Positions 28,064 through 45,274 of a stretch of DNA of 64,000 bases are shown one piece after another (the stretch's first letter is position 1; every line of letters starts with the position of its first letter). Position numbers and translations under genes: made by a program. The stretch is from an uncultured Spirochaetota bacterium (lineage in GTDB: Bacteria; Spirochaetota; Spirochaetia; SZUA-6; Fen-1364). The notes below the pieces were generated by a model, which saw nothing but the letters and a program-made list of their open reading frames with translations, was not told where the DNA came from and ran no database searches. The stretch spans positions 128,001-192,000 of the forward strand of contig CAWAHW010000002.1 in the NCBI GenBank assembly GCA_963781885.1. The letters run 5' to 3'.

Positions 28064-28240
28064 AGCCCGTCCGGCGTCACGGGTCGGGGTGCCGGGCTTC
28101 GAGGGTCTTCACCAGCGCATCGAGATCGGCGTTCCACCGGGTCTCATCCAGCGCGCCGAGCCCCCGGGAGAGTCGGGCGCTCTTTTTGCACTTGACGACG
28201 GACATCCGGACCGTATTTTCTTGTGAGAAGAGGTGACGAG

Positions 28241-29230
28241 ATGAAACCTGTTGTCTGGGGCGTGCTTTCGATTTCCCACCATTACAAGCTTCGCGTCCAT
28301 ACGAATGTGAGCCGGTCCCCGCTTGTCGACATGCGCGGTCTTGCCTCCCGCTCCCGGGACAAGGCGGCGGAGGCCGCCCGCGATCTGGGCATCGCAAAGT
28401 CGTACGGTTCCTACGAGGAGCTCCTTGCGGACAAGGAGATCGAGGCAGTCTACATCCCGCTTCCCAACCACCTGCACGCGGAATGGGTGAAGAAGGCAGC
28501 GGATGCGGGAAAGCACGTCCTCTGTGAGAAGCCATTCGCCATGGATGCCAAAGAGGCGGAGGGGGCGATCCGCTACGCGGAGCGCAAGGGCGTGCGCGTG
28601 ATGGAGGCCTTCATGTACCGATTCCATCCCCAGTGGAAAAAGGCGCAGGAGCTGCTGAAGGCGGGGGAGATCGGGAAGGTGCAGCTCGTGTCCACGGTCT
28701 TCACGTACAGCAACCTCGACCCCCACAATATCCGCAATATCCTGGCCGTCGGCGGCGGGGCCATTCCCGACATCGGCTGCTACGCGGTGTCCAGCGCCCG
28801 CTTCCTCCTGGGCAGGGAACCAACGCGCGTGATCAGCCTCGTCCAGCGCGACCCCACGATGGGCACGGACATCCTCACCTCCGCCCTGCTTGACTTCGGG
28901 TCTGCCCGGTGCCAGTTCACGATCTCCACCCAGACCCACCCCTGGCAGCGGGTCGACGCACTGGGAACCGGCGGCGCGCTTTCCGTCCTGATCCCTTTCA
29001 ATGCCTACCCCGACGTGCCGATGCAGATGACCGTCACCGCGGGCGTCGGCACCCGGCAGATCTACACCCCGCCCACCGACCAGTACGTGGAGATGTTCGA
29101 GGGCTTCTCCCGCGCCGTGCGCGACGGCACGCCCGTTCCCACGCCGCCCCAGGACGCCATCGATAACATGAAGGTGCTCGACGCGCTGTTCAGGTCGGAG
29201 AAGTCGGGGAGCTGGGAGAAGGTGACGTAA
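28241..29230 (+). CDS. Gfo/Idh/MocA family oxidoreductase
   Basis: 'YIPLPNHLH', 'GKHVLCEKP', 'MEAFMYRFHP', 'DIGCY'. Confidence 0.92.
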   Translation: MKPVVWGVLSISHHYKLRVHTNVSRSPLVDMRGLASRSRDKAAEAARDLGIAKSYGSYEELLADKEIEAVYIPLPNHLHAEWVKKAADAGKHVLCEKPFAMDAKEAEGAIRYAERKGVRVMEAFMYRFHPQWKKAQELLKAGEIGKVQLVSTVFTYSNLDPHNIRNILAVGGGAIPDIGCYAVSSARFLLGREPTRVISLVQRDPTMGTDILTSALLDFGSARCQFTISTQTHPWQRVDALGTGGALSVLIPFNAYPDVPMQMTVTAGVGTRQIYTPPTDQYVEMFEGFSRAVRDGTPVPTPPQDAIDNMKVLDALFRSEKSGSWEKVT

Positions 29231-29294: not shown

Positions 29295-30374
29295 TCACCG
29301 GTTGCAGCCGCATGAGGCGCGGATCTTGAGCTCAGGTGAGGATCTATGGGTCTCGTTCGCGAAAACGCCGTGAGCGGTCATGTCGAGCGCAATGGCTCCC
29401 ACGATCTCCCCCAGGTGCCGCGCGCCGGGATCCAACGATGTCATGCCCATCCCAAGGGCGAGGCCGGAGTTTCCATAGCCGATCACCGAGCAGTCCCGTC
29501 CGGGTGCGAGCCCGGTCGAGGTCAGTCCGTGGAGTGCCCCTGCCGCCGTCTCATCCGAGGCACAGAGGAATGCCCGGCATTCAGGCGACCGGGAGAGCAT
29601 CTGACGACAAGCGTCCTTTGCGGCGTCCACACCGGGCGCTATGGTTCGCATGAGCGCTGGCTCAACTGACAGCCCGGCCGCGGCCATCTCCTCCTCGTAG
29701 CCCTTTCGAAGCTGATCCACGGTAAAGCTCGTCTCTGCGGCAAGGAAGGCGATCGATCTGTGCCCGAGATCCTGGAGGTAGCGCACGGCATCACGTGCAC
29801 CTTTCACGTCGTCCACGATGACTTGGGGGGCGCGTGCCGGCTCCCGCAGGCCGCGTACGACGATGGTGTTCCGCAACTCTTCTCCCACCTGCACTATCGA
29901 CCTGGCCGATCCAGCAGGCTCGAGGATGACCAGCGACCCGGATTCGACGGCCTGGCCGTACAGAGCCGCTTCCAGGAGGACATCATTGTGATGGAGTGAG
30001 ACGCGCAGCGGCATGTCCAGGCTGCGGAGCTGCTCCTCCAATGACTCGAGGATCGCCGCATTCGTCTCATCCATGTGCGCGCAGAGCAGCTGCGCAAACG
30101 GGAAATGTGCCGCCCTCCGCGAAGCGACGGACCTGTCGCGCGAGTAGATGACGAGCGTGCCCTTGCCGCTGTAGCGCTCGATATAGCCCTCGAGCACGAG
30201 CTTCGCCAGCGCGTTCCTGACCGTGAGATGCGTGGTCGCGAACCTGTCCTTCAGCGCGCGCTCGGGCGGGAACCAGTCCCCCTTGCGATACTTGCCGGAC
30301 CTTATTTCCTCCCTGAGCTCCAGGTAGATTTTCTCGTAGAGGTACTGGCTGGTTCCCGCGGGTTCCTGCGACAT
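29295..30374 (-). CDS. GntR-HTH + LacI-type effector domain regulator (AraR-like)
   Basis: N-terminal GntR 'PPERAL...TVRNAL...GKGT'; C-terminal 'YLQDLGHRSIAF', 'CASDETA', 'SVIGYGN'; divergent from the BMC operon. Confidence 0.85.
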   Translation of the reverse strand: MSQEPAGTSQYLYEKIYLELREEIRSGKYRKGDWFPPERALKDRFATTHLTVRNALAKLVLEGYIERYSGKGTLVIYSRDRSVASRRAAHFPFAQLLCAHMDETNAAILESLEEQLRSLDMPLRVSLHHNDVLLEAALYGQAVESGSLVILEPAGSARSIVQVGEELRNTIVVRGLREPARAPQVIVDDVKGARDAVRYLQDLGHRSIAFLAAETSFTVDQLRKGYEEEMAAAGLSVEPALMRTIAPGVDAAKDACRQMLSRSPECRAFLCASDETAAGALHGLTSTGLAPGRDCSVIGYGNSGLALGMGMTSLDPGARHLGEIVGAIALDMTAHGVFANETHRSSPELKIRASCGCNR

Positions 30375-30468
30375 ATGGCTGCCGGTGGATCTTACTGTAA
30401 GATGCGCGGTTTTCGATCTCAAGGTTCGTCCTTCGCCGCGCATCATATGGCATATTTTCGTTGAATGC

Positions 30469-30551
30469 TATATAGCGCTTACGAAGTCAAAATATCCATA
30501 TTAAAAAAAGTCTTGACAGGTAGGATGTTATGCTATATATAGCGCTATATA
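30469..30551 (+). promoter_or_regulatory. BMC operon promoter and operators
   Basis: TTGACA 30513-30518; 16-bp palindrome TATATAGCGCTATATA 30536-30551 over the -10; partial copy TATATAGCGCT 30469-30479. Confidence 0.7.
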
Positions 30552-30575
30552 CAGTGATTGCGGAGGGAGCCAACT

Positions 30576-31340
30576 ATGGATCTGGGCTTGAAGGGCAAGA
30601 CCGCCCTCGTGACGGGCGGGGGAACGGGGATTGGGGCGGGGATCTGTGAAGCGCTGGCGCAGGAAGGCGTGAACGTCGGGGTCAACTGGATCGTCGGTAA
30701 GGACGACGTCACCGCTTTTGCCGCCCGCTTGAGCCGAACCTACGAAACGGACTGCCGCCCCTTCTATGCAGACGTCTCCAAGCCGGATGACCTGGACGCG
30801 ATGGTGCGGGAGCTGATCGCGGCGTACGGTCGCATCGACATCCTGGTGAACAACGCGGGCATCTGGCCCACGGAGGACATCCTCGACATGCCGGACCGCA
30901 ACTGGGACAAGGTCATCGGCATCAATCTCAACGGGCCGTTCATGCTCTGCAAGAGGGTCGCGCAGCACATGGTGGCGGCCGGCATCAAGGGGAGCATCGT
31001 CAACCTGTCCTCCAAGTCGGGCATCACGTACAACACGGGCGGTCACGCGCACTACGCGTCGGCCAAGGCCGCGATCATCATGCTCACGAAGTCCCTCCAG
31101 CGGGAGCTCGCGCAGCATGGCATCCGCGCCAACGCGATCGCCCCCGGCATGGTGCGCACGCCCATCAACGAGGACAAATGGACCGACCCCGAGCTGAAAA
31201 AGGCGTACGAGGCGCGCATCCCGTCGGGGCGTTTCGCGCTCCCCGTGGAGATCGGCTACGCGGTTGCGTTCCTGGTGTCGGAGAAATCGTTCAACATCAT
31301 GGGAACCTGTCTCGACGTCACCGGCGGAATGCTGATATAG
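30576..31340 (+). CDS. SDR oxidoreductase
   Basis: TGGGTGIG, NNAG, YASAK; SD GGAGGGAG. Confidence 0.9.
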   Translation: MDLGLKGKTALVTGGGTGIGAGICEALAQEGVNVGVNWIVGKDDVTAFAARLSRTYETDCRPFYADVSKPDDLDAMVRELIAAYGRIDILVNNAGIWPTEDILDMPDRNWDKVIGINLNGPFMLCKRVAQHMVAAGIKGSIVNLSSKSGITYNTGGHAHYASAKAAIIMLTKSLQRELAQHGIRANAIAPGMVRTPINEDKWTDPELKKAYEARIPSGRFALPVEIGYAVAFLVSEKSFNIMGTCLDVTGGMLI

Positions 31341-31350
31341 GAGGAAGGAA

Positions 31351-32131
31351 ATGAGCGTGAACCTTTCGGGAAAGACCTGCGTCGTCACCGGCTCGGCAAA
31401 GAGCATTGGACTGGGTGTGGCGGAGATGTATTGCAGCCTGGGGGCAAAAGTGGCCATGATCGATATCAACCCCGACGTCCTGAAGGAAGCCGAGCGGCTG
31501 TCGAAGGCGGGGAACGCGGTCCGGGGCTACATCCTGGACATCACCGATAAGAAGGCGGTGGGGGAATGCTTCCAGGATATCGCAAAGAAGCTGGGCGACG
31601 TCTTCGCGCTCGCAAATATTGCGGGGGCCGTCGACCAGCAGCCGTTCGAGGAGATTACGCCCGAGCGGCTCGACAAGATGAACAGGATCAATATCAATGG
31701 AACGATCTGGTGCGCGCAGGGCGCGCTCATGACAATGAAGAAGCTCAAGGACGGACGGATCATCAACTTCGCCTCGAAGTCGGGCAAGACGGGCTCCGCC
31801 ATCATGGCCGCCTACTCGGGGGCAAAGGGCGCGATCATCTCGATCACGCACGCCATGGCCTTCGAGCTCGCGAAGGAAAACATCAAGGTGAACTGCCTCT
31901 GCCCCGGCATCGTCGAGAAGACGGGAGTCTGGGGCGCGGTGAGCAAGGGCTACGTGGAGAACCTCAAGATGGAGGAGGAGGCCGTGGTGAAGCAGTTCAC
32001 CTCAAAGGTCCCTCTCGGGAGGCTCTGCAGGATCGATGACGTGGTGGCATTCGTGAGGTTCCTGACGGTGGACGGGGACTACTGCACCGGCCAGGCTTTC
32101 AATGTCAGCGGCGGACGGGAAATGCACGTAG
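31351..32131 (+). CDS. SDR oxidoreductase, sorbitol-6-phosphate dehydrogenase-like
   Basis: TGSAKSIG, 'ASKSGKTG', YSGAK, 'YCTGQAFNVSGGREMH'. The probable true stop TAG 32129-32131 is displaced by one base; the ORF track reads on to 32175. Confidence 0.8.
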
Positions 32132-32155
32132 GAACCACAGAGGAAGGGGGATGGA

Positions 32156-32449
32156 ATGGCGGAGAACCAGTTTGATGCTCTGGGCATGATCGAGACGCGC
32201 GGATTCGCGGCGATGGTGGAAGCGGCGGACGCGATGGTGAAGGCCGCGAAGGTCGATCTTGTGGGCTACGAGAAGATCGGCGGCGGGTACGTGACGGCGG
32301 TCGTGCGCGGCGACGTTGCCGCCTGTCGCGCGGCGGTGGATGCCGGTGCGCGTGCGGCGGAGAAGGTGGGAGAGATCGTGAGCACGCACGTGATCCCGCG
32401 GCCGCATGAAAGCGTGGACGCGGCGCTGCCGTTGGGCAGGAAGGGGTAG
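32156..32449 (+). CDS. BMC-H hexamer shell protein
   Basis: 'ALGMIETRG...AADAMVKAA...[17 protein letters not shown]...VIPRPH' (PduA/EutM-like). Confidence 0.97.
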
Positions 32450-32452
32450 GCC

Positions 32453-33094
32453 ATGGCGGTAGACCTCAGGACCTACGTATTCCTCGATTCGCTGCAGCTT
32501 CAGAACGCATCGTTCATCGCCACCGTGTCCAAGGGGTATTACCCCATCGGCATGCAGGCCTGCTGCGTCATCGAGATCGCCCCGGGCATCGAGATCAACA
32601 GGCTCACCGATATCGCGCTGAAGGCCACGAACGTGACCCCCGGCCTCCAGATCGTCGAACGAGCCTACGGACTTCTGGAGGTCCACTCGGACAGCCAGGG
32701 CGATGCGCGCATGGCCGGCGAGGCGGTGCTGCGCGAGCTGAAAAAGACCGAGCAGGATCGGCTGAAGCCGCGGGTGATGACCAGCCAGCTCATCAAGAAC
32801 ATCTCCGACCATCACGCGCAGCTCATCAACAAGGTGCGTCACGGCAACATGGTGCTGCGCGGCGACACGCTGTACGTGCTGGAGGTGGAGCCCGCGGGCT
32901 ACGCCTACTACGCGGCCAACGAGGCGGAGAAGACCTCGAAGGTGAACATCATCGAGGTGCTGGGCTTCGGGGCATTCGGCCGGGTGTACATCGCCGGGGA
33001 CGAGGCGGAGGTCATCGAGGCGCGCAAGGTGGTGGAGTCGCGTTTGGGCGGATTGAGCGGCCGCGAGATCGCGGCAAATACCCAGAGGATATAA
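32453..33094 (+). CDS. BMC-T(dp) double-stacking trimer shell protein
   Basis: '[11 protein letters not shown]', 'EIAPG', '[11 protein letters not shown]', 'ANEAEK', 'GAFGR' (CcmP/CsoS1D/Haliangium T2 type). Confidence 0.93.
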
Positions 33095-33144
33095 GAGCCC
33101 AGGTTTGGGCGGGCATTCGAGCCGTGGATAAGGGGAAGGAAACT

Positions 33145-33465
33145 ATGGCGGAGAACCAGTTTGACGCTTTGGGCATGATCGAGACGCGCGGATTCGCGGC
33201 GATGGTGGAAGCGGCGGACGCGATGGTGAAGGCCGCGAAGGTCGATCTTGTGGGCTACGAGAAGATCGGCGGCGGGTACGTGACGGCGGTCGTGCGCGGC
33301 GACGTTGCCGCCTGTCGCGCGGCGGTGGATGCCGGTGCGCGTGCGGCGGAGAAGGTGGGAGAGATCGTGAGCACGCACGTGATCCCGCGGCCGCATGAAA
33401 GCGTGGACGCGGCGCTGCCCCTCGGGCGGCAGCCCAGCGGCCCGAAACCGGCGGCGAAGAAGTAG
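33145..33465 (+). CDS. BMC-H hexamer shell protein with basic C-terminal tail
   Basis: Same core protein as 32156, ending [12 protein letters not shown]. Confidence 0.97.
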
Positions 33466-33503
33466 CGGCGCGCGGGCGACGTGCCCGCGGAAGGGATGCG
33501 GTC

Positions 33504-33824
33504 ATGGTACTGGCGCGGGTGAAAGGCACGGTGGTGAGCACGCACAAGCCTTCCTCCATGGAAGGGCTGCGGCTGCTCCTGCTGGAGAAGGTGGACGCGG
33601 TGACCCTCAAGGGAAAGGGCGACTTCGTCGTCGGCATCGACAGCGTGGGCGCGAATGCCGGGGAGATCGTGTTCTACGTCACGGGATCCAGCGCGCGCAT
33701 GACGGACGCCACGAAGGGCAAGCCGTCGGATGCCACGATCATCGCGATCGTGGATGCCATCGAGAAGGACGGCGCGCTCACCTACGACAAGGCACGCGGG
33801 GACGCCGCGGCAGGCCCGGCATGA
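33504..33824 (+). CDS. BMC-P pentamer (EutN/CcmL)
   Basis: 'LARVKGTVVSTHK', 'DSVGA..GE', 'DATIIAIVD'. Confidence 0.93.
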   Translation: MVLARVKGTVVSTHKPSSMEGLRLLLLEKVDAVTLKGKGDFVVGIDSVGANAGEIVFYVTGSSARMTDATKGKPSDATIIAIVDAIEKDGALTYDKARGDAAAGPA

Positions 33825-34114
33825 ACCTTGCGCGGGTGCGGGGCACGGTGGTTGCCAGCGTTCGATCGGACAAGGTGGAAGGGGCGAAGTGGCTCCTCAT
33901 CGAGGACTGCGACCAGTCGGGCAAGGGACGCGGCGAGTACCTCGTGGCGCTCGACATGGTGGGCGCCAACCGGGGCGAGCTCGTGCTCGTCACCCAGGGA
34001 AGCTCCTGCCGTTGGACGTACCGCACGGAGGACCGGCCGATGGACACCCTTGTCGTCGCGATCGTGGATGCCATCGACCAGCGCGGGGCCGTGGTCTATG
34101 CCGCGGCTCACTGA
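33821..34114 (+). CDS. BMC-P pentamer (EutN/CcmL)
   Basis: MNLARVRGTVVAS, 'ALDMVGANRGE', 'DTLVVAIVD'. Confidence 0.9.
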   Translation: MNLARVRGTVVASVRSDKVEGAKWLLIEDCDQSGKGRGEYLVALDMVGANRGELVLVTQGSSCRWTYRTEDRPMDTLVVAIVDAIDQRGAVVYAAAH

Positions 34115-34124
34115 GGGATGACGC

Positions 34125-35573
34125 ATGGCAAACCCGGCTGACGAGATTCGACAGATCGTCGCGGAGGTCCTGAAGAGCGCCGACGTCGCGGCGATGCTCA
34201 ACGGGACGGGCGCGGCAGCGGGCGCGGCGCGCCCGGGCGTCGCCTTCGGCAATGGCGTGTTCGCCGACATCGACTCCGCGGTCGGTGCCGCCGCGGCGGC
34301 ACAGAGGGAGCTTGCGGAGCTGCCGCTGGACACCCGCCGCCGCATGATCGACGCGATGCGTCACGCGGTCATTGCCGCCAACGATTCCTTCAGCGCCGAG
34401 GCCGTGGCGGAGACCGGCCTGGGCAACGTGCGGGACAAGAAGGTCAAGAACGAGCTCGCGGCGGCAAAGACCCCCGGCGTGGAGGACGTCGAGCCCTCCG
34501 CATACTCCGACGAGCACGGCCTCACCATCACGGAGCGCGCGCCGTATGGCGTGATCGGCGCGATCACGCCGGTGACCAATCCCACCGCCACGATCACGAG
34601 CAATTCCATCGGCATGATCTCCGCGGGCAATTCCGTTGTTTTCAACGTGCACCCGAACGCAAAGGGGGTCTCCAATCGGCTTGTTGCGCTTCTCAACGAT
34701 GCCATCGCGGGCGCGGGCGGGCCGCGCAACCTCCTCTGTGCCATTGCCGAGCCCACCATCGAAAGCGCGGGCGAGCTGATGAAGCATCGCGGTGTGGCGA
34801 TCCTCGTCGTCACCGGCGGCCCCGGCGTGGTGAAGGCGGCCATGGGCAGTGGCAAGAAGGCAATCTGCGCCGGTCCGGGCAACCCTCCCTGTGTCGTGGA
34901 CGCTACCGCCGACATGTCGAAGGCCGGTCGGGACATCGTGGCAGGGGCCAGCTTCGACAACAACGTGGTCTGCATCTGCGAGAAGGAAGTGCTCGCCGTG
35001 GATTCCATCGCGGACAGGCTGAAGCAGGAGATGAGGGCCAACGGCGCCTTCGAGCTCAACCCGAGCCAGCGTGACGCGGTGACCCGTCTGGTGATCCCCT
35101 CGCCCAAGGGGCCGCGCGTCGAGAGCGCGCCGAACAAGGACATGGTGGGAAAGGACGCGGCGTTCATCGCACGCGCGGCCGGCATCGAGGTTCCCCCCTC
35201 CACAAGGCTCCTCCTGATGGAGGTGGATCGTGATCACCCCCTGGTGTGGAGCGAGCAGCTCATGCCCGTGCTGCCCCTCGTGCGCATGCAGAGCGCCGAC
35301 GAGGCCATCGATTTTGCCGTGGCGGTGGAGCATGGGTTCCGGCATACGGCCATGATCCACTCCCACGACATCGAGAAGCTTTCCCGGATGGCGCGCCTCA
35401 TGAACTGCTCCCTGTTCGTGAAGAATGGTCCTTGCTACGCCGGTCTCGGCCAGGGCGGGGCAGGGTTCACCTCGTTCACCATCGCCAGCCCCACCGGCGA
35501 AGGGCTCACCCGTGCGCGCACGTTCACCCGTGAACGGCGCTGCACGCTGGTGGACTATTTCAGGATCGTGTAG
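34125..35573 (+). CDS. CoA-acylating aldehyde dehydrogenase (EutE/PduP) with N-terminal encapsulation peptide
   Basis: 'ITPVTNPT', 'TGGPGVV', 'AGPGNPP', 'FDNNVVCICEK', 'IASPTGEG', 'RRC'; amphipathic 'EIRQIVAEVLK' plus linker. Confidence 0.95.
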   Translation: MANPADEIRQIVAEVLKSADVAAMLNGTGAAAGAARPGVAFGNGVFADIDSAVGAAAAAQRELAELPLDTRRRMIDAMRHAVIAANDSFSAEAVAETGLGNVRDKKVKNELAAAKTPGVEDVEPSAYSDEHGLTITERAPYGVIGAITPVTNPTATITSNSIGMISAGNSVVFNVHPNAKGVSNRLVALLNDAIAGAGGPRNLLCAIAEPTIESAGELMKHRGVAILVVTGGPGVVKAAMGSGKKAICAGPGNPPCVVDATADMSKAGRDIVAGASFDNNVVCICEKEVLAVDSIADRLKQEMRANGAFELNPSQRDAVTRLVIPSPKGPRVESAPNKDMVGKDAAFIARAAGIEVPPSTRLLLMEVDRDHPLVWSEQLMPVLPLVRMQSADEAIDFAVAVEHGFRHTAMIHSHDIEKLSRMARLMNCSLFVKNGPCYAGLGQGGAGFTSFTIASPTGEGLTRARTFTRERRCTLVDYFRIV

Positions 35574-35575
35574 CC

Positions 35576-35860
35576 ATGAAGCTGGGACGCGTGATCGGCA
35601 GGGTGGTCTGCACGCAGAAGATGGAGTGTTTCGAGGGATTGAAGCTCCTCCTCGTGCAGCCGGTGGATGAGGACGGCAAAGACGCCGGCAGTCCCCTTGT
35701 GGCCTTCGACGTGGCACGGGCGGGGGAGGGGGACCTCGTGATGTTCGAAGCGGGAAAGGAAGCTGCGCAGGCGAACCCCAACGGCTGGTTCAATCCCGGC
35801 GACGCGGCGATCCTTGGGGTCGTGGATGAGGTATCGACAGGACCGCGGAGGGGCCGATGA
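35576..35860 (+). CDS. BMC-P pentamer (EutN/CcmL)
   Basis: 'MKLGRVIGRVVCTQK', 'DAAILGVVD'. Confidence 0.92.
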   Translation: MKLGRVIGRVVCTQKMECFEGLKLLLVQPVDEDGKDAGSPLVAFDVARAGEGDLVMFEAGKEAAQANPNGWFNPGDAAILGVVDEVSTGPRRGR

Positions 35861-36165
35861 CGCTTGCGAAGGTGACGGCGAATGTCGTTTCCACGGAGAA
35901 GCATGCCCACTACCGGGGTCGCAAGATCCTCGTGGTCCAGCCGGTGGGGCCCGATGGGACGCCGAAGGGGAAGAGCTTGCTCGCGGTGGACGGCGTGCAG
36001 GCGGGAATCGGCGACCTCGTGCTCGTTGTGGACGAGGGCGGCTCCGCGCGCGCGGTGATCGGCGATGAGACCGCGATGACCATCCGGACTGCGATCTGCG
36101 GGATCGTCGACCGCATTGATGTCGCGGAAGATCCCGCGACATCAATTGACATCGAGAACCGGTGA
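35857..36165 (+). CDS. BMC-P pentamer (EutN/CcmL)
   Basis: 'LAKVTANVVSTEKH', 'AVDGVQAGIGD', 'ICGIVD'. Confidence 0.92.
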   Translation: MTLAKVTANVVSTEKHAHYRGRKILVVQPVGPDGTPKGKSLLAVDGVQAGIGDLVLVVDEGGSARAVIGDETAMTIRTAICGIVDRIDVAEDPATSIDIENR

Positions 36166-36172
36166 GGGAGAA

Positions 36173-36640
36173 GTGAGCGGCAAAGATAACGTGCGCAGCG
36201 TGGCCATCGGCTCCGACCACGGGGCATTCAGCCAGAAGGAAGCGCTGAAGACATACCTGCAGACTGCGGGCTACCGGGTCGTGGACGTCGGCTGCTTCGA
36301 CAAAGGTCCGGTTGACTACCCGGACATCGCCGTGGCGGTGTGCCGCCACGTGGTGAGCGGGGACTGCGAACGGGGGATCGTGCTGGACGGGGCCGGGATC
36401 GGCTCCTGCATCGCCGCGAACAAGATCAAGGGGATCCGCGCGGCTCTCTGCTACGACATCCGCACCGTCATCAACAGCCGGGAGCACAACAACGCCAACG
36501 TGCTCACCCTCGGCGGACCGCTGCACGACGCGGGGCAGCTCGCCGACATGGCGCGCACGTGGCTGGAGACCCGCTTCGGCGGCGGGCGGCACATCATCCG
36601 GGTGAACAAGATCATGGCAATCGAACGAGGAGGCGTGTGA
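36173..36640 (+). CDS. rpiB: Ribose-5-phosphate isomerase B family
   Basis: 'GSDHG', 'DYPD', 'AANKIKGIRAA', 'REHNNANVL', 'GGRH'. Confidence 0.92.
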   Translation: MSGKDNVRSVAIGSDHGAFSQKEALKTYLQTAGYRVVDVGCFDKGPVDYPDIAVAVCRHVVSGDCERGIVLDGAGIGSCIAANKIKGIRAALCYDIRTVINSREHNNANVLTLGGPLHDAGQLADMARTWLETRFGGGRHIIRVNKIMAIERGGV

Positions 36641-36645
36641 GACTC

Positions 36646-37437
36646 ATGGACCAGAACCAGTTGATCGAAAAGATCGTGAGCGAGGTCATGGCGCGGATGG
36701 CCGCCGCTCCTGCCGCGGGGAAACCGGCGGAATCGGGCGCCACCAGCGCGTCGGCCGTCCCCGCCCTGGGGTCGGCGGACATCGCGAAATACATCGACCA
36801 CACCATGCTGCGGCCCGAGGCTCCCACCGCCGCGTTCGACAAGCTCTGCCAGGAGGCGCTGCAGTATCACTTCTTTGCAGTCTGCGTGAACTCCTGTCGC
36901 GTTTCCTACGTGGCGCGCAAGCTCCAGGGCACGGGCATCAAGGTCGCCTCCGTGGTCGGTTTTCCCCTCGGTGCCATGACGAGCCGGTCCAAGGCCTTCG
37001 AGACGCGGGAGGCCATCGAGGACGGAGCCTCCGAGATCGATATGGTCATCAATATCGGCCTGCTGAAGTCGGGCGATCATCGCGGCGTGGAAGAGGATAT
37101 TCGCGCGGTGCGCCGTGCCACCCGGGGGAATACGATCCTGAAAGTGATCATTGAAACGGCCCTGCTTACCCAGGACGAGAAAGTCATGGCGTGCGAGCTT
37201 TCAAAGAAGGCTGGCGCCGACTTTGTGAAGACCTGTACCGGCTTCTCGGGCGGCGGCGCAAGCGTGGAGGACATTTCCCTGATGCGCCGCGTCGTGGGCA
37301 GCGAGATGGGGGTGAAGGCGAGCGGCGGCGTGCGCACGTACAAGAGCGCGCTCGCGTTCATCGGCGCGGGGGCAAGCAGGCTGGGCTGCGTGGCGAGCGT
37401 CGCCATCGTCACCGGTGCGGAGGGATCGGGGAGCTGA
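36646..37437 (+). CDS. deoC: Deoxyribose-phosphate aldolase with N-terminal encapsulation peptide
   Basis: 'YIDHT', 'VVGFPLG', 'EIDMVIN', 'KVIIET', 'FVKT', 'VKASGG'; N-terminal 'QLIEKIVSEVMARM' plus Ala/Pro linker. Confidence 0.93.
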   Translation: MDQNQLIEKIVSEVMARMAAAPAAGKPAESGATSASAVPALGSADIAKYIDHTMLRPEAPTAAFDKLCQEALQYHFFAVCVNSCRVSYVARKLQGTGIKVASVVGFPLGAMTSRSKAFETREAIEDGASEIDMVINIGLLKSGDHRGVEEDIRAVRRATRGNTILKVIIETALLTQDEKVMACELSKKAGADFVKTCTGFSGGGASVEDISLMRRVVGSEMGVKASGGVRTYKSALAFIGAGASRLGCVASVAIVTGAEGSGS

Positions 37438-37455
37438 CTAGCCCCCGCAAACCCC

Positions 37456-38166
37456 ATGGCACTCCTGATCCCGTCGATTCTTTCCGCCGATTTCACGCGA
37501 CTCGGCGATGAGCTGCGCGCAGTGGAGGCGGCCGGCGCAGACTGGATCCACGTCGACGTCATGGACGGGCATTTCGTTCCGAACCTCACCATGGGCCCGC
37601 TGGTCGTGGAGGCCGTGCGCCGGGTGACGCGGATCCCCATCGATGCCCACCTCATGATCGAGAACCCTGATCGGTTCATCGAGCGATTCGCCGAGGCGGG
37701 GGCCACGCACATCAGCGTGCACGCGGAGACCGCCGTCCATCTGAACCGCTCACTCCAGCTCGTGCGGTCGTGCGGCGCGCATCCCGGGATCGCTTTGGGG
37801 CCCGCCGCGCCCCTGTCGCTTGTCGAGTGGTCGCTGGACTACGCGGATTACGTTCTGCTCCTCGCGGTGAATCCCGGTTTCGGCGGGCAGGATTTTCAGC
37901 CCTGCGTGCTGGAAAAGATCCGCGCCTTTTGCGCCGAGATCCGGCGCCGGGGACTCTCGACAACCATTCAATCCGATGGCGGCATCAACCTGGGAACCAT
38001 CGCGGATTTCGCGGCGGCCGGTGTGGATGCATTCGTGGTTGGATCGGCGTTGTTCGGAAGCGGCGATTACCGCGCCACCCTGGCCGCGATGCGGCAGAAG
38101 GTGGAGCGCGCGGCGGGGCAGACCCCCGCGGTTGCCAGCCGCGGCGGCGCGGGGATCGGTCGATGA
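37456..38166 (+). CDS. rpe: Ribulose-phosphate 3-epimerase
   Basis: 'PSILSADF', 'HVDVMDGHFVPNLT', 'VNPGFGGQ', 'DGGI'. Confidence 0.95.
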   Translation: MALLIPSILSADFTRLGDELRAVEAAGADWIHVDVMDGHFVPNLTMGPLVVEAVRRVTRIPIDAHLMIENPDRFIERFAEAGATHISVHAETAVHLNRSLQLVRSCGAHPGIALGPAAPLSLVEWSLDYADYVLLLAVNPGFGGQDFQPCVLEKIRAFCAEIRRRGLSTTIQSDGGINLGTIADFAAAGVDAFVVGSALFGSGDYRATLAAMRQKVERAAGQTPAVASRGGAGIGR

Positions 38167-39032
38167 TCGCGATTGCCAACGGGTTCTGGGGTGCCGCGAT
38201 CTCGGAGACGGGCGCCGAGATGAAGAGCCTCGCCAATCTCAAGACCGGTCAGGAGCACATCTGGCACGGCGATCCGACATGGTGGAACGGCTCAGCCCCG
38301 GTGCTTTTTCCCATCATCGGGGGGCTGAAAGACGGCGCGTACACATTCGAAGGGAAGCAGTACAAACTGCCGTCTCATGGGTTCGCGCGGGGCAGCGAGT
38401 TCATGGTGACCCGGGCCGGGTCGGACTTCGCGGAGCTCGTGCTCGCGTCCAACCCGAAGACACGGGAAAACTACCCCTTCGATTTCTCCCTGAAGGTGTC
38501 TTTCGGTCTAGAGCGCTCGGGCGTCGCCATTCGATATGAAGTCACCAACACGGGGTCGTCGCGCATGTTTTTCTCCATCGGGTCGCATCCCGCGTTCGTG
38601 GTTCCGTTTGCCGGGGGCGCGCTTGAAAACTACTACGTGCTCTTCGAGCGCGAGGAGAGCATCGAGCGCTGGTTCTTCAAGGACGGCATCATCCTGGCGG
38701 GCAAGACCGAGGAGGTGCTGGACAACAGCCGCACCCTCAACCTCACCCGATCGATGTTCGACGACGGCATCATGATCTTCAAGCACCCGGCCTCGCGCGA
38801 GTTCGCCATCGCCAACAGCCGCGGCGCGCACGCGGTCCGGGTGGTGACCGAGGGTGTGCCCTACCTGGGGATCTGGTCGAAGCCCGGAGGTGCGCCCTTT
38901 CTCTGCATCGAGCCGTGGCATGGCATCCCCGACATGAGCGACGCGACGGGAAACCTCGTGGAGAAGGAAGGCATCGTCGGGCTCGACCCCCGCGCGATCT
39001 TTTCGACCGGTTATCGCGTGGAGATCGAATAG
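38163..39032 (+). CDS. Aldose 1-epimerase family (LacX-like)
   Basis: 'GAEMKS', 'APVLFPIIG', 'HGFAR', 'YPFDF', 'GSHPAF', 'FLCIEPW'. Confidence 0.9.
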   Translation: MIAIANGFWGAAISETGAEMKSLANLKTGQEHIWHGDPTWWNGSAPVLFPIIGGLKDGAYTFEGKQYKLPSHGFARGSEFMVTRAGSDFAELVLASNPKTRENYPFDFSLKVSFGLERSGVAIRYEVTNTGSSRMFFSIGSHPAFVVPFAGGALENYYVLFEREESIERWFFKDGIILAGKTEEVLDNSRTLNLTRSMFDDGIMIFKHPASREFAIANSRGAHAVRVVTEGVPYLGIWSKPGGAPFLCIEPWHGIPDMSDATGNLVEKEGIVGLDPRAIFSTGYRVEIE

Positions 39033-39103
39033 CCTCACTCCCGCCGAAACCTCCGATTTGTTCGCGCGCGGGGTATTCCTTATATTAGGCGGGGGATCAA
39101 CAC

Positions 39104-40138
39104 ATGAGTGACTACCTGCCTTCCGCCAATCGCTACGCGTCAATGCTGTACAGAAGATGCGGGAAAAGCGGCCTGCGGCTGCCTGCTCTTTCCCTGGGAC
39201 TGTGGCATAACTTCGGTGGCGCGACGCCTCAGGAAAATGCCCGGCGGATGATCTTCCGTGCGTTCGACCTCGGCATCACGCATTTCGACCTGGCAAACAA
39301 TTACGGCCCTCCCCCGGGGTCCGCGGAGGAGAACTTCGGAAAGATCCTCGCCCAGGATCTTGCCGGTCACCGCGACCAAATGATCGTCTCCACGAAGGCC
39401 GGCTACCTCATGTGGCCGGGCCCGTACGGGGAATGGGGCTCGCGAAAATACATCCTGGCGAGCCTCGATCAAAGCTTGAAACGGATGGGGCTCGACTACG
39501 TCGATATCTTCTATTCCCACCGCCTGGACCCCGATACGCCGCTGGAGGAGACGCTCGGCGCGTTGCACAGCGCCGTGCAGCAGGGCAAGGCCTTGTACGT
39601 GGGCGTCTCTTCCTACTCCGCGGCCATGACGCGCAAGGCCTCGACGATTCTCCGGTCCCTCGGGACCCCGTGCCTCATCCACCAACCCTCGTATTCCATG
39701 CTGAACCGGTGGATCGAGAAGGGGCTGCTGGACGTCCTGGGCGAGGAAGGGATCGGCTGCATCGCCTTCTCGCCCCTGGCGCAGGGGATGCTTTCGGACA
39801 AATATCTTGCCGGCATTCCGGCCGGCACGAGGGCCGGGACGCAGGGCACGGCGCTGGACAAGAAGCTGTTGACGGAGGAGAACCTTCGACACATCAAGGC
39901 GCTGAATACAATCGCGAAGGCGCGCGGGCAGAGCCTCTCCCAGATGGCGCTCGCGTGGGTCCTGCGCGACACACGCGTCACCTCCGCACTGGTGGGAGCG
40001 AGCAGCCCGGCGCAGATCTCCGAGAGCGTCGCGGCCCTCTCGAACCTTCGTTTCACCACGGAGGAGATCGCGCGGATCGACAAGGACGCCGTGGAGGGCG
40101 GCATCAATCTTTGGGCGCAATCCAGCGACGCCGGCTGA
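39104..40138 (+). CDS. gpr: L-glyceraldehyde-3-phosphate reductase (YghZ-type aldo-keto reductase)
   Basis: 'CGKSGLRLPALSLGLWHNFG', 'FDLANNYGPPPGSAE', 'STKAGYLMWPGPYG', 'IHQPSYS'. Confidence 0.9.
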   Translation: MSDYLPSANRYASMLYRRCGKSGLRLPALSLGLWHNFGGATPQENARRMIFRAFDLGITHFDLANNYGPPPGSAEENFGKILAQDLAGHRDQMIVSTKAGYLMWPGPYGEWGSRKYILASLDQSLKRMGLDYVDIFYSHRLDPDTPLEETLGALHSAVQQGKALYVGVSSYSAAMTRKASTILRSLGTPCLIHQPSYSMLNRWIEKGLLDVLGEEGIGCIAFSPLAQGMLSDKYLAGIPAGTRAGTQGTALDKKLLTEENLRHIKALNTIAKARGQSLSQMALAWVLRDTRVTSALVGASSPAQISESVAALSNLRFTTEEIARIDKDAVEGGINLWAQSSDAG

Positions 40139-40226: not shown

Positions 40227-40523
40227 ATGGCAATCGACCAGAACCGCTTCGAGGCCCAGGTGAGCGAGGTCCTCGCGTCATTCGATTTCAATCTCGTTCA
40301 CCGGGTCATGGAATTTCTAGACTGGACGTGGGCGAATCTCGATCGCATCCCGACGAAAAAGGAGCTTGTGGCCGAGGCAGGGCGGCTCCTGAGGGAGCTG
40401 GCGGGATCCCCCGGGGTCCTGGGCAGCGGCGGTCTGCGGGCGAGCTTCAAGGAAGACGGGACGCTCAGCCTCAAGTTCATCGTGAGCGAGAGCTGGTCCG
40501 ATCTGGCCGAGGACGCCCGTTAG
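40227..40523 (+). CDS. Hypothetical protein
   Basis: 98-aa ORF with SD AAGGA and protein-like composition filling the gap; 'FDFNLVHRVMEFLDWTW'. Confidence 0.7.
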   Translation: MAIDQNRFEAQVSEVLASFDFNLVHRVMEFLDWTWANLDRIPTKKELVAEAGRLLRELAGSPGVLGSGGLRASFKEDGTLSLKFIVSESWSDLAEDAR

Positions 40524-40541
40524 GCCCCTTTCTGCCCGCTC

Positions 40542-40570
40542 TTGACTTATTTTTACTAGTAGAATACTAT
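40542..40570 (+). promoter_or_regulatory. sigma70-type promoter of iclR-family gene
   Basis: TTGACT-N17-TACTAT, with imperfect palindrome TTTTACTAGTAGAA in the spacer. Confidence 0.65.
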
Positions 40571-40588
40571 TTGATAAGAGATGAAGAG

Positions 40589-41443
40589 ATGAAGGATCGC
40601 AGTCGTATCAAGAAGCCCGTTCGCACCTATTCGGCACCCGCGGTCGACAGGACGCTCGACATCCTGGAATACATGGCGGCGCACCCGCGTCCCTTCGGTA
40701 CCACGGAGCTCTCACGCAGCCTCAACATACCGATCAATTCCGTATTCCGCATCCTCAAACGCCTGACGGACCGCGCCTATACGGTGCAGGATCCCTTTTC
40801 CGACGGCTACCAGCTCAGCACGAAGGTTTTCACCCTCGGCATGAGCCTGTATGTCAGGTTCGAGCTGCGCCAGCGCGTCCGGCCTCATCTCGAATGGCTC
40901 TGCCGGGAAACCGAGGAGACCTGCCAGCTCCAGGTCCCGCAGGGGGACAAGATGCTGGTGCTGGACACCATCAGCCCCGAGGTCCAGTACTACATCCGGG
41001 TGGTGCCGGGCGGACTCGTTCACTATCACCCCAATGCCTTTGGAAAGGCGGTGCTCGCCTTCGATACCGAGGAGGAGATCAAGCGCCTCATCCCGCCGAG
41101 GCTGCCGGGGTTGACGCCGCACACCATCGTCCTGCGCACGGAACTCTTGAAGCAGCTCGAGAACGTGCGCAGGACGGGTCTCGCGTACGACAACGAGGAA
41201 TACAACGAGGGGATCAGGTGCGTCGGCGCGCCGGTCTTCGACGTGGAAGGCAAGGTCGTGGCGGGTCTCGGGGTCACGGGGCTCGTGTTCACCTTCCGCA
41301 ACCAAAGGCTGGCGGCGTTCGAGCAGCTCGTGCTCGAATGCGCCTTCCGCGTCTCCCGGGACATCGGGTACACGGGCGGCTTCTTCACCGACAAGATCGC
41401 GCGCCCCTTTTCCAACCAGCTCCAGAAGGCCGGCGGCTCCTGA
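40589..41443 (+). CDS. IclR family regulator
   Basis: 'APAVDRTLDILE', HTH, 'GKAVLAF', 'DNEE...GIRCVGAPVFD'. Confidence 0.93.
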   Translation: MKDRSRIKKPVRTYSAPAVDRTLDILEYMAAHPRPFGTTELSRSLNIPINSVFRILKRLTDRAYTVQDPFSDGYQLSTKVFTLGMSLYVRFELRQRVRPHLEWLCRETEETCQLQVPQGDKMLVLDTISPEVQYYIRVVPGGLVHYHPNAFGKAVLAFDTEEEIKRLIPPRLPGLTPHTIVLRTELLKQLENVRRTGLAYDNEEYNEGIRCVGAPVFDVEGKVVAGLGVTGLVFTFRNQRLAAFEQLVLECAFRVSRDIGYTGGFFTDKIARPFSNQLQKAGGS

Positions 41444-41456
41444 TCTTCAGGCCTGC

Positions 41457-42494
41457 TCAGGCCCTGATCGGGTAACGGCCGAGCTCCCGCCACGTCGTGA
41501 GCAACGCTCGATAATTCTCCGGCGTGACCGACGAGTGGATTGAGTTGCTCGACGAGAGGATGAAACCTCCGCCCGGCGCGCCGACCCGCAGCGCATGGCG
41601 CGTGGCGGCGGCGACTTGGTCGGGCGTGCCGAGGGTCATCAGGTGCGCGCAGTCTACATTGCCCTTGAGCGCAATGAGCGCCCCCAGCTTTGCCTTCACT
41701 TCCGCGAGGTCCATGCCGGCGACGGGATCGATGGGATCAAGGCAGTCGATGCCCGATTCCACGATCATGTCCATGAGCGGCCAGATCATGCCGTCGGTGT
41801 GCTTGATGACACGGAGGCCCAGCGCCTTGAACCCCTGCACGACGCGACGCAGGCCGGGCGCGAACAAGGCGCGAAAGTGCGCCGGTGACATCAGAGGCCC
41901 GCTGTCCCCGGCATAGTCGTCCCCCGTGTAGACGACCTTCGCGCCCCGTTGCGCGACCTCCTTCGCCATCGCCAGGTTGACGTCCACCGACATCTCGACC
42001 ATGGCGGCGACAAGGGTCGGCTCGGAGACGATTGCCATGAGGAGGTTTTCGTATCCCATGAGGGAGCGGGGGATGGAAAAGACGTCGTTCAGATGGACGA
42101 TCACCGCCTTCCGCCCGGCGTAGTCGCGGAGCGTCTTCTCCACGTGGAAGTAGCGTCCGGCGGCATGCGGATCAGGCGGTACGTAGCGCTCGAAGTCCCG
42201 CATGGTCCGTATCGGCGATTCGACCTCTATGCCATGCTCCTCCGCTGACTCCTGCACGGTGTATCCCCACTCCGTGCGCCATCGCCCCGGTCCGGCGGGC
42301 GCCCTGGTCCAGTCGGGCTCCGCGATCACGGCGTCAAGCCCCATGCGGTCGGCGAAATCATTCAGCGAGATGCATCCCGGGGCGAGGGCTGCGCGCACCT
42401 TCCTGTCGATGGCCCATTCGAAATGGGGCACCCTGTCGGGCTCCTTGCGATCCAGCACCCGAAGGATCCGTTCCTCACCCGTCATGTCCGCCAT
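41457..42494 (-). CDS. URO-D / MtaA-like family protein
   Basis: 'EPDRVP', 'GDDYA...GPLMSP', 'KHTDG', 'LKGNVD', 'PGGGFILSSSNSI'. Confidence 0.85.
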   Translation of the reverse strand: MADMTGEERILRVLDRKEPDRVPHFEWAIDRKVRAALAPGCISLNDFADRMGLDAVIAEPDWTRAPAGPGRWRTEWGYTVQESAEEHGIEVESPIRTMRDFERYVPPDPHAAGRYFHVEKTLRDYAGRKAVIVHLNDVFSIPRSLMGYENLLMAIVSEPTLVAAMVEMSVDVNLAMAKEVAQRGAKVVYTGDDYAGDSGPLMSPAHFRALFAPGLRRVVQGFKALGLRVIKHTDGMIWPLMDMIVESGIDCLDPIDPVAGMDLAEVKAKLGALIALKGNVDCAHLMTLGTPDQVAAATRHALRVGAPGGGFILSSSNSIHSSVTPENYRALLTTWRELGRYPIRA

Positions 42495-42639
42495 TCGGTG
42501 CCTCCGATGATGATTTCACCACCCAAGTAAAAAATATCATATCATATTTAAAATCTACTTGACAAATGGAATTTTACAAGTCATAGTCCGATTTGGTTTG
42601 ATCCTGACAGATGATGCGTGAACGAGGGAGGTGCTTTGC

Positions 42640-43389
42640 ATGAGTGAATCTTTGAAGGGAAAAGTCGCCGTCATCTCCGCTGTCGGCTCGGGCTTTGCCA
42701 AGGCGACCGCGGAGCTTTTTGCGAAACTGGACAAGGTGAATCTCGTCGTCTTCGACATCGATGAAGCCGCGCTCAAGACCACGGTGGCCAACTGTCAGGC
42801 CGCGGGTTCCAGGGTTGTTTCGTTCAAGGGGGATGCCACGAAGCCCGAGACATTCGAGCGCGCGCTTTCGGAGAGCATCGGCAATTTTGGCAAGGTGGAT
42901 TTCCTCATCAATTACGCCGGCGGGGCGGTCAAGGTGGCCCCCATCGAGGAGATGGATGACGCGGTGAACCGCAAGATCATCGATCTCAACCTCATGAGCA
43001 CGATCATGAGCTGCCGCACCTTCACTCCCCAGTTCAAGAAGCAGGGGTACGGGAAGATCATCAACGTGTCCAGCGCGTGCGACCGGCGTTCATGGCAGGG
43101 CTGGTCGGTCTACTCCGCGGCGAAGGCCGGGGTCAATGCGTTCACAAAGTGCCTTTACACGGAATTGCGTCCGTTGGGGATCGCGGTGACGCTCCTGGTG
43201 CCGGGCGGTTCCAACACCGGATTCCAGAAGGCAGCCCAGGGCGTCGACAAGTTCGAATGGGACGAGTCCCTCGCGGTGAGGCCCGAGCACTTCGCCGACA
43301 TGGTCTACCAGACCTGCGCGCTGACAAGGGGCGGCTGCGTATCCGAGATGCTCGTGTATGGCCTGGCGCAGGACGTGAGCGGGTTCTGA
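42640..43389 (+). CDS. SDR oxidoreductase
   Basis: Atypical cofactor loop SAVGSGFA, 'INYAG', YSAAK; TTGACA promoter upstream. Confidence 0.85.
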   Translation: MSESLKGKVAVISAVGSGFAKATAELFAKLDKVNLVVFDIDEAALKTTVANCQAAGSRVVSFKGDATKPETFERALSESIGNFGKVDFLINYAGGAVKVAPIEEMDDAVNRKIIDLNLMSTIMSCRTFTPQFKKQGYGKIINVSSACDRRSWQGWSVYSAAKAGVNAFTKCLYTELRPLGIAVTLLVPGGSNTGFQKAAQGVDKFEWDESLAVRPEHFADMVYQTCALTRGGCVSEMLVYGLAQDVSGF

Positions 43390-43390
43390 C

Positions 43391-43900
43391 ATGAAAGAAA
43401 TCGCCTGGAAAAAGCTGAGTCTGGAGGCTTTCGCTCCCTTTGGGGCGTATGCGCGGATGCTGAACCCTTCGGCCCTGAAGATCGGCGCGGAGCCAATCGA
43501 GTTTTTCCGCGACATGATCCAATCCCAGTTGGGCACGACCTCACTTGCGTCCTTCGGTGTCTGCCGCGTGGTGAAAAGGCCGTGCGTCGTGGACGTGTCC
43601 GAGTACCACGACACCTGCTGCGAGATCGTGCTTCCCTTGGACGGCGACGTCCTGATGCACGTGGCGCCGGCGGTACCCGAGAAAGAGTTTCCTTTCGACC
43701 GGGCCGAGGTGTTTTTCGTGCCGAAGGGAACGATTTGCTGTCTGCGCCCGGGCGTGTGGCACCACGCTCCTTTCGCTCATGCAACGCAGGTCGTCAACTG
43801 TCTGGTCGTCCTTCCAGAGCGCACCTATATGAACGACTGCACGGTCTACCCGTTCCCGGCGGAAGAGCGGATCAGGATTGTCGGCGAGGGCGTGCTTTGA
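43391..43900 (+). CDS. Ureidoglycolate lyase-like cupin
   Basis: 'LSLEAFAPFG', 'EYH', 'PGVWHHAPF'. Confidence 0.72.
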   Translation: MKEIAWKKLSLEAFAPFGAYARMLNPSALKIGAEPIEFFRDMIQSQLGTTSLASFGVCRVVKRPCVVDVSEYHDTCCEIVLPLDGDVLMHVAPAVPEKEFPFDRAEVFFVPKGTICCLRPGVWHHAPFAHATQVVNCLVVLPERTYMNDCTVYPFPAEERIRIVGEGVL

Positions 43901-45254: not shown

Positions 45255-45274
45255 CGCAGCAGGGGGGCGGATGC

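Follow-up and report, generated by a model that had tools for sequence, protein, structure and literature searches.

An SPU2-type microcompartment locus of an uncultured spirochaete carries dehydrogenase, epimerase and mutarotase genes that accompany a distinct DeoC lineage

What would a bacterial microcompartment (BMC) operon of the sugar phosphate utilization (SPU) class do with two short-chain dehydrogenases/reductases (SDRs), a ribulose-phosphate 3-epimerase (Rpe) and an aldose mutarotase? The question is raised by a locus of an uncultured Spirochaetota bacterium (GCA_963781885.1, contig CAWAHW010000002.1), located in a stretch of 64,000 nt (positions 128,001-192,000, forward strand) that we refer to as the window. 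Its operon (30558-39032, plus strand) encodes, in order, SDR1, SDR2, a BMC-H, a BMC-Tdp, a second BMC-H, two BMC-P, an aldehyde dehydrogenase (AldDH), two more BMC-P, an RpiB-family protein, the deoxyribose-phosphate aldolase (DERA) DeoC, Rpe and the mutarotase. The locus is a real and intact SPU2-type locus, of a kind already described, an organelle predicted to cleave a deoxy-sugar phosphate and to confine the toxic aldehyde that results; the four add-on genes (SDR1, SDR2, Rpe and mutarotase), a separate regulator and a distinct aldolase lineage define a sub-variant of SPU2. On balance, and with modest confidence, we favor the reading that the operon specifies a functional SPU2-type metabolosome and that the add-ons constitute a cytosolic catabolic cassette associated with the lineage of DERA found here, designated Type A.

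Gene families were called with Pfam and NCBIfam profile scans of the window proteins, and the assembly (4.64 Mb in 7 contigs, 92.55% complete), less 16 kb, was searched for additional homologues. Every gene listed in a first-pass annotation of this DNA was recovered with strong Pfam or NCBIfam family scores, and both its assignment of the locus to the SPU class and its prediction of encapsulation peptides (EPs) on AldDH and DeoC are upheld by the families and the N-termini. As described in the supplement text of Sutter et al. (2021; PMC8217296), SPU2 occurs mostly in Bacteroidetes and Spirochaetes, its enzymes are limited to AldDh, pfam01791 and pfam02502, with triose-phosphate isomerase, phosphotransacylase (PTAC) or alcohol dehydrogenase (ADH) in few loci, and it has BMC-Ts, with PduS accompanying in a quarter of the loci. 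In Dataset S1 of Dwyer et al. (2024; PMC11585597), 10 of 10 spirochaete loci are SPU2, and one catalogued SPU2 locus from a spirochaete metagenome-assembled genome (MAG) has BMC-H and BMC-P genes after that for a ccmP-like Tdp of 213 residues. The window locus resembles SPU2 in its AldDh with an N-terminal EP, its EP-bearing pfam01791 DERA and its pfam02502 RpiB, the latter two adjoining shell genes, and likewise in its two similar BMC-H, four BMC-P, CcmP-like Tdp, lack of PTAC and ADH, lack of satellite shell genes and spirochaete host. It differs in having neither BMC-Ts nor a PduS homologue, and in the leading SDR1-SDR2 pair and the Rpe and mutarotase genes after DeoC, none of which is named in the SPU2 text. 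The first-pass annotation had anticipated that a gene-for-gene match to a described SPU subtype would overturn its view of the locus as unusual; the match largely holds for the shell and core enzymes but stops at the missing BMC-Ts and at the add-ons. Part of its claim to novelty fails, since four BMC-P and the lack of PTAC and ADH are the stated norm for SPU2 in the Sutter supplement. Mention of the SDRs, Rpe and mutarotase was found neither in the running text of the published SPU accounts, as distinct from their locus diagrams, nor by literature search.

The two BMC-H genes form a 288-nt direct repeat of 97% identity (32156-32443 and 33145-33432) on either side of the BMC-Tdp gene, and their proteins are identical over 95 residues, with KAAK and PRPH visible, in keeping with the SPU2 description. 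BMC-Tdp aligns with positions 1-209 of the 213 in the CcmP model NF053796 at 275 bits; because this score falls below the carboxysomal equivalog cut-off of 340, we regard the protein as CcmP-like and not as CcmP. The four PF03319 genes encoding BMC-P are arranged as two adjacent pairs, which fits the SPU2 triplet with an additional copy. Genome-wide, shell matches amount to two BMC-domain and four EutN/CcmL proteins, all inside the SPU2 locus, with no satellite shell genes; no BMC-Ts was found, the only two PF00936 matches in the genome being single-domain BMC-H. A relative at the level of the order (L124) does have a BMC-Ts, accompanied by a Fer4 protein. On one environmental contig (L136), the Tdp and one BMC-H copy are missing, exactly the product that recombination between the 288-nt repeats would give.

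At their N-termini, AldDH and DeoC each have an amphipathic stretch, similar in the two proteins, and then a linker rich in Ala and Gly, the AldDH helix having been judged by eye; RpiB has no N-terminal encapsulation extension. By sequence, the window DeoC is a clear DERA. It scores 271.5 bits against TIGR00126 (equivalog cut-off 117.3), aligns end to end with solved DERAs (E 3e-79), keeps the IDMV, KVIIE, VKT.TGF and KASGG motifs, and has D132, K166, K195 and K224, invariant in 25/25 aligned sequences. In RpiB, the only RpiB-family match in the genome, Asp replaces the catalytic Cys (LDGAG versus ICGTG in the alignment to 3HE8 and 3PH3), and this D65 is invariant in the 24/24 SPU-locus RpiB sequences aligned. 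The protein scores 133.3 bits against TIGR01120, under the cut-off of 138.65, and lacks the catalytic Cys expected of a ribose-5-phosphate isomerase B. The Cys-to-Asp change fits the inactive-looking SPU ribose-5-phosphate isomerase (RPI) in the account of Dwyer et al. (2024; PMC11585597), where the catalytic Cys is absent and Asp stands in its place. The DERA-RPI pair of Chloroflexi SPU6 treated there shares with the window an N-terminal EP on the DERA and an Asp for the catalytic Cys of the RPI; it differs in that the window RPI carries no EP and in that the SPU6 shell has different BMC-H and Tdp clades.

The locus contains no iron-containing ADH (Fe-ADH), PTAC, Pta, acetate kinase or PduS-like gene, and the family scans thus agree with the absence of AlcDH, PduL/Pta and acetate kinase from the locus reported by the first-pass annotation. 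The genome search that it recommended for satellite pduL and adh genes returned homologues at a distance. The sole PTAC homologue in the genome lies ~149 kb upstream on the same contig (C2:8746-10107, minus strand; L001:1453-2814) and is a 453-residue fusion of an MshE-type cyclic di-GMP-binding domain, ComFB and PduL, a domain composition that suggests second-messenger control of acyl-phosphate formation; its neighbors are not BMC-related. Fe-ADH has five matches in the genome, four of them above the cut-off and all distant from the locus, and Pta and two full-length acetate kinases are encoded elsewhere. Satellite core enzymes were considered and rejected, given the unrelated neighbors of the PduL fusion and the distance of the Fe-ADH, Pta and acetate kinase genes; all are treated here as cytosolic housekeeping enzymes. 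The genome also encodes one pyrimidine-nucleoside phosphorylase domain and, on another contig, a second DeoC, which is 43% identical to that of the locus, aligns with it at residues 45-258 only and has no EP.

Relatives of the locus were collected by a DeoC scan that returned 80 loci, onto which the window proteins were mapped by tblastn. Within the family of the window's genome, where BMC-Tdp is present in 23 of the 24 other genomes, the survey comprised 20 regions from 16 of 28 Tdp-positive genomes; the remaining 12, mostly on short contigs, were left out. Type A refers to SPU2 loci like that of the window and Type B to DeoR-regulated SPU2 loci without add-ons. The 11 Type A loci of the family encode DeoCs 74-86% identical to the window's, and the full set of four add-ons is present in six of them and in five environmental contigs spanning the locus. 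A homologue of the GntR/PBP regulator (45-66% identity) occupies the same position in Type A loci, and a spirochaete MAG contig (L002) has the same gene order as the window at ~80% identity, without the aldo-keto reductase (AKR) gene that follows the operon in the window. The seven Type B loci of the family keep the BMC-H-to-DeoC order of Type A, carry no add-ons and encode DeoCs 54-58% identical to the window's; both Type B family loci with annotated flanks (L112 and L114) have a DeoR-family regulator upstream. The two types occur together in four genomes, and the window's genome has Type A only.

Shell proteins, AldDH and RpiB differ between the two types about as much as within either, in contrast to the aldolase. 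Mean identity between types is 91% for Tdp (91-93% within type), 74% for AldDH (77-79%), 76.5% for RpiB (76.5-87%) and 70-78% for the four BMC-P (72-87%), but it falls to 56% (range 49-60) for the DeoC catalytic domain, compared with 80-85% within type. The first ~17 residues of DeoC, which correspond to the EP, are almost identical in Types A and B. Type B thus resembles the window in a shell, AldDH and RpiB that are 70-91% identical and in a near-identical DeoC EP, and departs from it in its DeoR regulator, in the absence of SDRs, Rpe and mutarotase, and in a DeoC of ~56% identity with the canonical S197 and S249. DeoC follows locus type and the shell follows species, so that the locus is a mosaic, for which shell gene conversion and aldolase-domain exchange are the candidate origins. 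Homogenization of shells within a genome was considered and rejected, A-B identities in the same genome being no higher than the A-B mean. Among order-level relatives, the DeoC of L123 groups with Type A and that of L124 lies near Type B, and their shell proteins are only ~75% identical to those of the family. A Type B-like locus (L119, G421:C1) is flanked by a third accessory set in the same shell design, made up of a FucI-like isomerase, an RbsD/FucU mutarotase, a SorC regulator, an SDR and an FGGY kinase. One Type A locus (L115, genome G409) has a second DeoC-family gene after the mutarotase (13538-14323; 40% identical to the window's DeoC) and a gluconolactonase and major facilitator superfamily (MFS) transporter between the regulator and SDR1.

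A quick maximum-likelihood tree of 98 DeoC catalytic domains, with two duplicate rows removed and supports from the SH-like approximate likelihood ratio test (SH-aLRT), places the Type A DeoCs and that of a shell-less operon (L004) in one clade (support 98), and six family Type B rows in another (support 97). Both types fall within a group of 25 rows that is rich in spirochaetes (support 88, drawn open), and on this ground we do not claim a foreign origin for the Type A DeoC. Computed against 78 other DeoC homologues, the Type A signature comprises five residues that are fixed or nearly fixed in Type A: M54 (L in 63/78 of the others), R56 (K in 72/78), L139 (A in 60/78), C197 (S in 77/78), situated two residues after the Schiff-base Lys in VKT-C-TGF, and V249 (S in 77/78). 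By E. coli DERA numbering, position 249 presumably lies in the phosphate-binding loop. Among environmental contigs found through SDR2, six of the ten full-length BMC-linked loci carry all five residues and eight carry C197 and V249 (the exceptions being L164 and L136). The C197-V249 pair is likewise present in six of six close shell-less relatives and in a more distant spirochaete DeoC that bears an EP and adjoins a lactonase and SDR cluster (L206). S197C and S249V may or may not alter the specificity of DeoC for 2-deoxyribose-5-phosphate.

The association of the add-ons with this aldolase extends to operons that have no shell. A low-GC member of the Spirochaetaceae (L004) encodes a SorC-type regulator followed by SDR1 (59% identity), SDR2 (60%), DeoC (66%, no EP) and Rpe (57%), and the high-GC contigs L152, L153 and L165 carry SDR1-SDR2-DeoC-Rpe with no shell genes and a DeoC devoid of an EP. 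Other contigs retain SDR2, one BMC-H, an EP-bearing DeoC, Rpe and mutarotase (L144 and L145), or SDR2 followed directly by an EP-bearing DeoC (L137), and look like intermediates, formed by deletion, that link the BMC locus with the shell-less cassette. Two further spirochaete genomes (G077 and G289) have a similar cluster, in which a GntR/UTRA regulator and an FGGY kinase are found with an SDR3 homologue (72-74%), SDR1- and SDR2-like proteins (44-49%), a 2-hydroxyacid dehydrogenase and a medium-chain dehydrogenase. In G077 (L205), its neighbors are SPU2 shell genes; the G289 version (L206), which additionally encodes a lactonase and an ABC transporter, comes after an EP-bearing DeoC, and no shell genes were seen in the fetched stretch, which ends just upstream of that DeoC. 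SDR2 is scarce: of 400 other genomes of the phylum, 2 have it at E<=1e-60. Homologues of SDR2 (64-69%) also adjoin aldehyde:ferredoxin oxidoreductase genes, with no shells, in both such contigs that are annotated (L176 and L184).

The anatomy of the add-on genes is compatible with expression as part of the operon and with a location outside the shell. SDR2 and the first BMC-H gene overlap by 20 nt, RpiB and DeoC are separated by 5 nt and DeoC and Rpe by 18 nt, and the Rpe gene shares 4 nt with that for the mutarotase, an arrangement of overlapping or abutting genes that fits a single transcription unit; terminator-like sites at the locus show no excess over shuffled sequence (9 versus 8.6 expected). 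None of the four add-on proteins has an amphipathic helix with linker, and their family domains span them nearly end to end. SDR1 scores 215.2 against NF005559 (cut-off 215) and resembles glucose/ribitol 1-dehydrogenases or L-xylulose reductases, and the closest solved structure to SDR2 is the Rhodobacter sorbitol dehydrogenase 1K2W, its score of 162 bits against the sorbitol-6-phosphate dehydrogenase model being under the cut-off of 307. Assignment of the SDRs to a pathway from NCBIfam and PDB names was rejected, as the matches are generic or sub-threshold. The Rpe of the locus is the third paralogue in the genome, the other two lying elsewhere at 45% and 42% identity.

Taken together, these features are consistent with the following model. 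Within the shell, the EP-tagged DERA would split a 2-deoxypentose 5-phosphate into glyceraldehyde-3-phosphate and acetaldehyde, and the EP-tagged acylating AldDH would convert acetaldehyde to acetyl-CoA, both activities being those expected of their families. By analogy with the SPU6 DERA-RPI complex (Dwyer et al. 2024, PMC11585597), the Cys-to-Asp RpiB would act as a partner or passenger of DERA and not as a working isomerase. As other SPU2 loci do, this one packages neither PTAC nor ADH; acetyl-CoA would exit the shell, perhaps by way of BMC-Tdp, to be used by the cytosolic Pta or PduL fusion and acetate kinase. Their gene anatomy points to SDR1, SDR2, Rpe and the mutarotase as cytosolic enzymes working with the Type A DERA lineage; most likely they would convert an imported free sugar or polyol, by anomer selection followed by oxidation, and connect the pentose phosphates with central metabolism. 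Control of the operon would fall to a sugar-binding GntR/PBP regulator, as opposed to DeoR in Type B. Several observations weigh against this model: the operon has no kinase for the presumed free sugar, no reaction could be assigned between the SDRs or Rpe and a 2-deoxypentose, the genome (at the completeness given above) has no match to phosphopentomutase (TIGR01696), and five of the 11 family Type A loci are without one or more add-ons. Candidates for the link between the SDRs, mutarotase and Rpe and the DERA are a free deoxyribose route, with the mutarotase acting as in deoM annotations, a pentitol or pentose route joining at the pentose phosphates, and a changed aldolase substrate. Among deoxyribose pathways, the deoK/deoM genes (PMC3899980) offer a parallel, at the level of an annotation mention, in a mutarotase adjoining deoxyribose genes, and the oxidative pathway of Price et al. 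(2019; PMC6365646) in the lactonase, SDR and MFS set of the relatives' loci L115 and L206. The window locus differs from both in that no PfkB deoxyribokinase or beta-keto-acid cleavage enzyme was seen in it, an observation confined to the locus, no genome-wide search having been made.

A rival to assigning classical DERA chemistry to the shell is that the Type A aldolase has changed its substrate, for instance to a different 2-deoxy sugar, to a sugar without phosphate or to a pentose-5-phosphate yielding glycolaldehyde, in which case Types A and B would be chemically different organelles in almost the same shell. We regard this as unlikely, even though the divergence of DeoC between otherwise similar loci, the five Type A residues at near-invariant sites (S197C and S249V included), the recurrence of C197 and V249 in every close shell-less relative and in L206, the coexistence of both types in four genomes, the Rpe paralogue owned by the locus and the separate, EP-less DeoC of the genome would all be in keeping with it. 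Set against them are a TIGR00126 score far above its cut-off, the end-to-end alignment to solved DERAs with all catalytic motifs intact, and the conservative size of the Type A substitutions; moreover, known DERAs hold the phosphate also through backbone amides. The suggestion in the first-pass annotation that the substrate may not be DNA-derived deoxyribose-5-phosphate meets the same divided evidence, since the distinct DeoC lineage with changes in the active-site region and the lack of a phosphopentomutase speak for it and the clear DERA sequence speaks against it.

The opposite simplification, a plain SPU2 locus for DNA-derived deoxyribose-5-phosphate in which the SDRs, Rpe, mutarotase and reductase are neighbors with unrelated jobs, strikes us as quite improbable. 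It would account for the add-ons not being universal among Type A loci and for the AKR and Gfo genes lacking conservation, and the published SPU2 enzyme set (PMC8217296, in its supplement text) requires no add-ons. Yet the coding regions overlap, the add-ons stay with DeoC where the shell is absent and track the DeoC lineage and not the shell, and in two genomes a cluster of SDR-rich sugar-oxidation and kinase genes lies, differently arranged, beside SPU2 shell genes (G077) or beside an EP-bearing DeoC (G289). The proposal of the first-pass annotation that the SDRs recycle NADH, standing in within the shell for a missing ADH or PduS, takes its appeal from the absence of an ADH, a PduS-like gene and BMC-Ts from the locus, but we consider it very improbable: the SDR domains take up almost the full length of the proteins, leaving no helix-plus-linker extension, and as neither SDR carries a targeting peptide, NADH recycling by them in the lumen is unlikely; the same SDR pair, moreover, remains with DeoC and Rpe in shell-less operons.

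Table 1. Genes of the SPU2-type locus and its flanks, in window positions, with the profile or structure matches used to identify them
Feature	Positions	Strand	Evidence and remarks
Gfo/Idh/MocA	28223-29230		Outside the range 29295-40138 of the first-pass annotation
GntR helix-turn-helix regulator with LacI-type periplasmic-binding fold (GntR/PBP)	29295-30446	-	Pfam GntR, Peripla_BP_3, Peripla_BP_1; divergent from operon
SDR1	30558-31340	+	Pfam adh_short, 185 bits
SDR2, polyol-dehydrogenase-like	31351-32175	+	Pfam; best PDB match 1K2W
BMC-H copy 1	32156-32449	+	PF00936, 108.7 bits
BMC-Tdp, CcmP-like	32453-33094	+	NF053796, 275 bits
BMC-H copy 2	33145-33465	+	PF00936, 108.1 bits
BMC-P 1	33504-33824	+	PF03319, 82.4 bits
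BMC-P 2	33821-34114	+	PF03319, 89.6 bits
CoA-acylating aldehyde dehydrogenase (AldDH)	34125-35573	+	PRK15398, 646 bits
BMC-P 3	35576-35860	+	PF03319, 83 bits
BMC-P 4	35857-36165	+	PF03319, 83.6 bits
RpiB-family protein	~36194-36640	+	PF02502, 165 bits; start uncertain, open reading frame opens at TTG 36116
DeoC (DERA), Type A lineage	36646-37437	+	TIGR00126, 271.5 bits
Rpe, ribulose-phosphate 3-epimerase	37456-38166	+	TIGR01163, 271.9 bits (cut-off 213)
Aldose 1-epimerase (mutarotase), LacX/3DCD-like	38163-39032	+	PF01263; PDB 3DCD, E 1e-46
YghZ-like aldo-keto reductase	39104-40138	+	NF007388, 509 bits
IclR (+), URO-D/MtaA-like (-), SDR3 (+), small cupin (+)	40328-43900	mixed	Pfam/NCBIfam
Sugar ABC transporter, two tandem FGGY kinases, AraD-like epimerase/aldolase, L-ribulose-5-P 3-epimerase	44126-53551	+	

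The flanks of the operon (Table 1) are conserved to different degrees. The L-glyceraldehyde-3-phosphate reductase and Gfo/Idh/MocA genes to which the first-pass annotation drew attention are indeed adjacent, but neither is conserved; the reductase, classified here as a YghZ-like AKR, is absent from every other Type A locus mapped and represents a lineage-specific addition. The IclR, SDR3 and cupin genes are kept after the mutarotase in five loci (L107, L108, L111, L115 and L117), accompanied by URO-D in four of these (not L117). SDR3, the sugar ABC transporter, the two FGGY kinases, the AraD-like gene and the L-ribulose-5-phosphate 3-epimerase gene lie 3-14 kb downstream of the locus, and the AraD-like and 3-epimerase genes immediately precede SDR1 in loci from another genus within the family (L118, L147 and L148); the transporter, kinase, AraD and 3-epimerase block may possibly be a feeder route to D-xylulose-5-phosphate. 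In that block, the tandem kinases (29% identical to each other) and the two genes that follow them (48912-53551) make up a set resembling an L-xylulose or 3-keto-L-gulonate-type route to D-xylulose-5-phosphate. URO-D/MtaA-like genes, present in the window at 1793-2863 (plus strand) and 41457-42494 (minus strand), turn up repeatedly in the vicinity of SDR2 homologues; those of L176 and L184 are accompanied by sugar ABC transporters, by FGGY kinases and by an aldehyde:ferredoxin oxidoreductase. Elsewhere in the window (13993-17320, minus strand), a protein that unusually fuses a PAS histidine kinase with an ABC-type ATPase domain is encoded next to a sigma-54 response regulator, upstream of a sugar ABC transporter.

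SPU is among the most widespread microcompartment types, and what its natural substrate is and what its RpiB does are standing questions; Dwyer et al. (2024; PMC11585597) call for experiments on each SPU subtype. Types A and B constitute a natural comparison in this respect, joining a near-identical shell and EP to aldolases, accessory genes and regulators that differ, at times within a single genome, with shell-less cassettes alongside, and they offer concrete proteins and predictions toward the SPU substrate. A bolder proposition, which we hold to be doubtful, is that one shell design serves two organelles: Type B would process deoxyribose-5-phosphate in the classical way, and in Type A the aldolase domain would have been exchanged, behind an unchanged EP, for one from a lineage whose active-site residues are altered and which evolved jointly with an Rpe of its own and with polyol or aldose dehydrogenases. 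If this is true, Type A processes a different sugar and possibly sequesters a different aldehyde, and these spirochaete loci would be a naturally occurring case of cargo being swapped while the encapsulation peptide stays fixed, useful for shell engineering.

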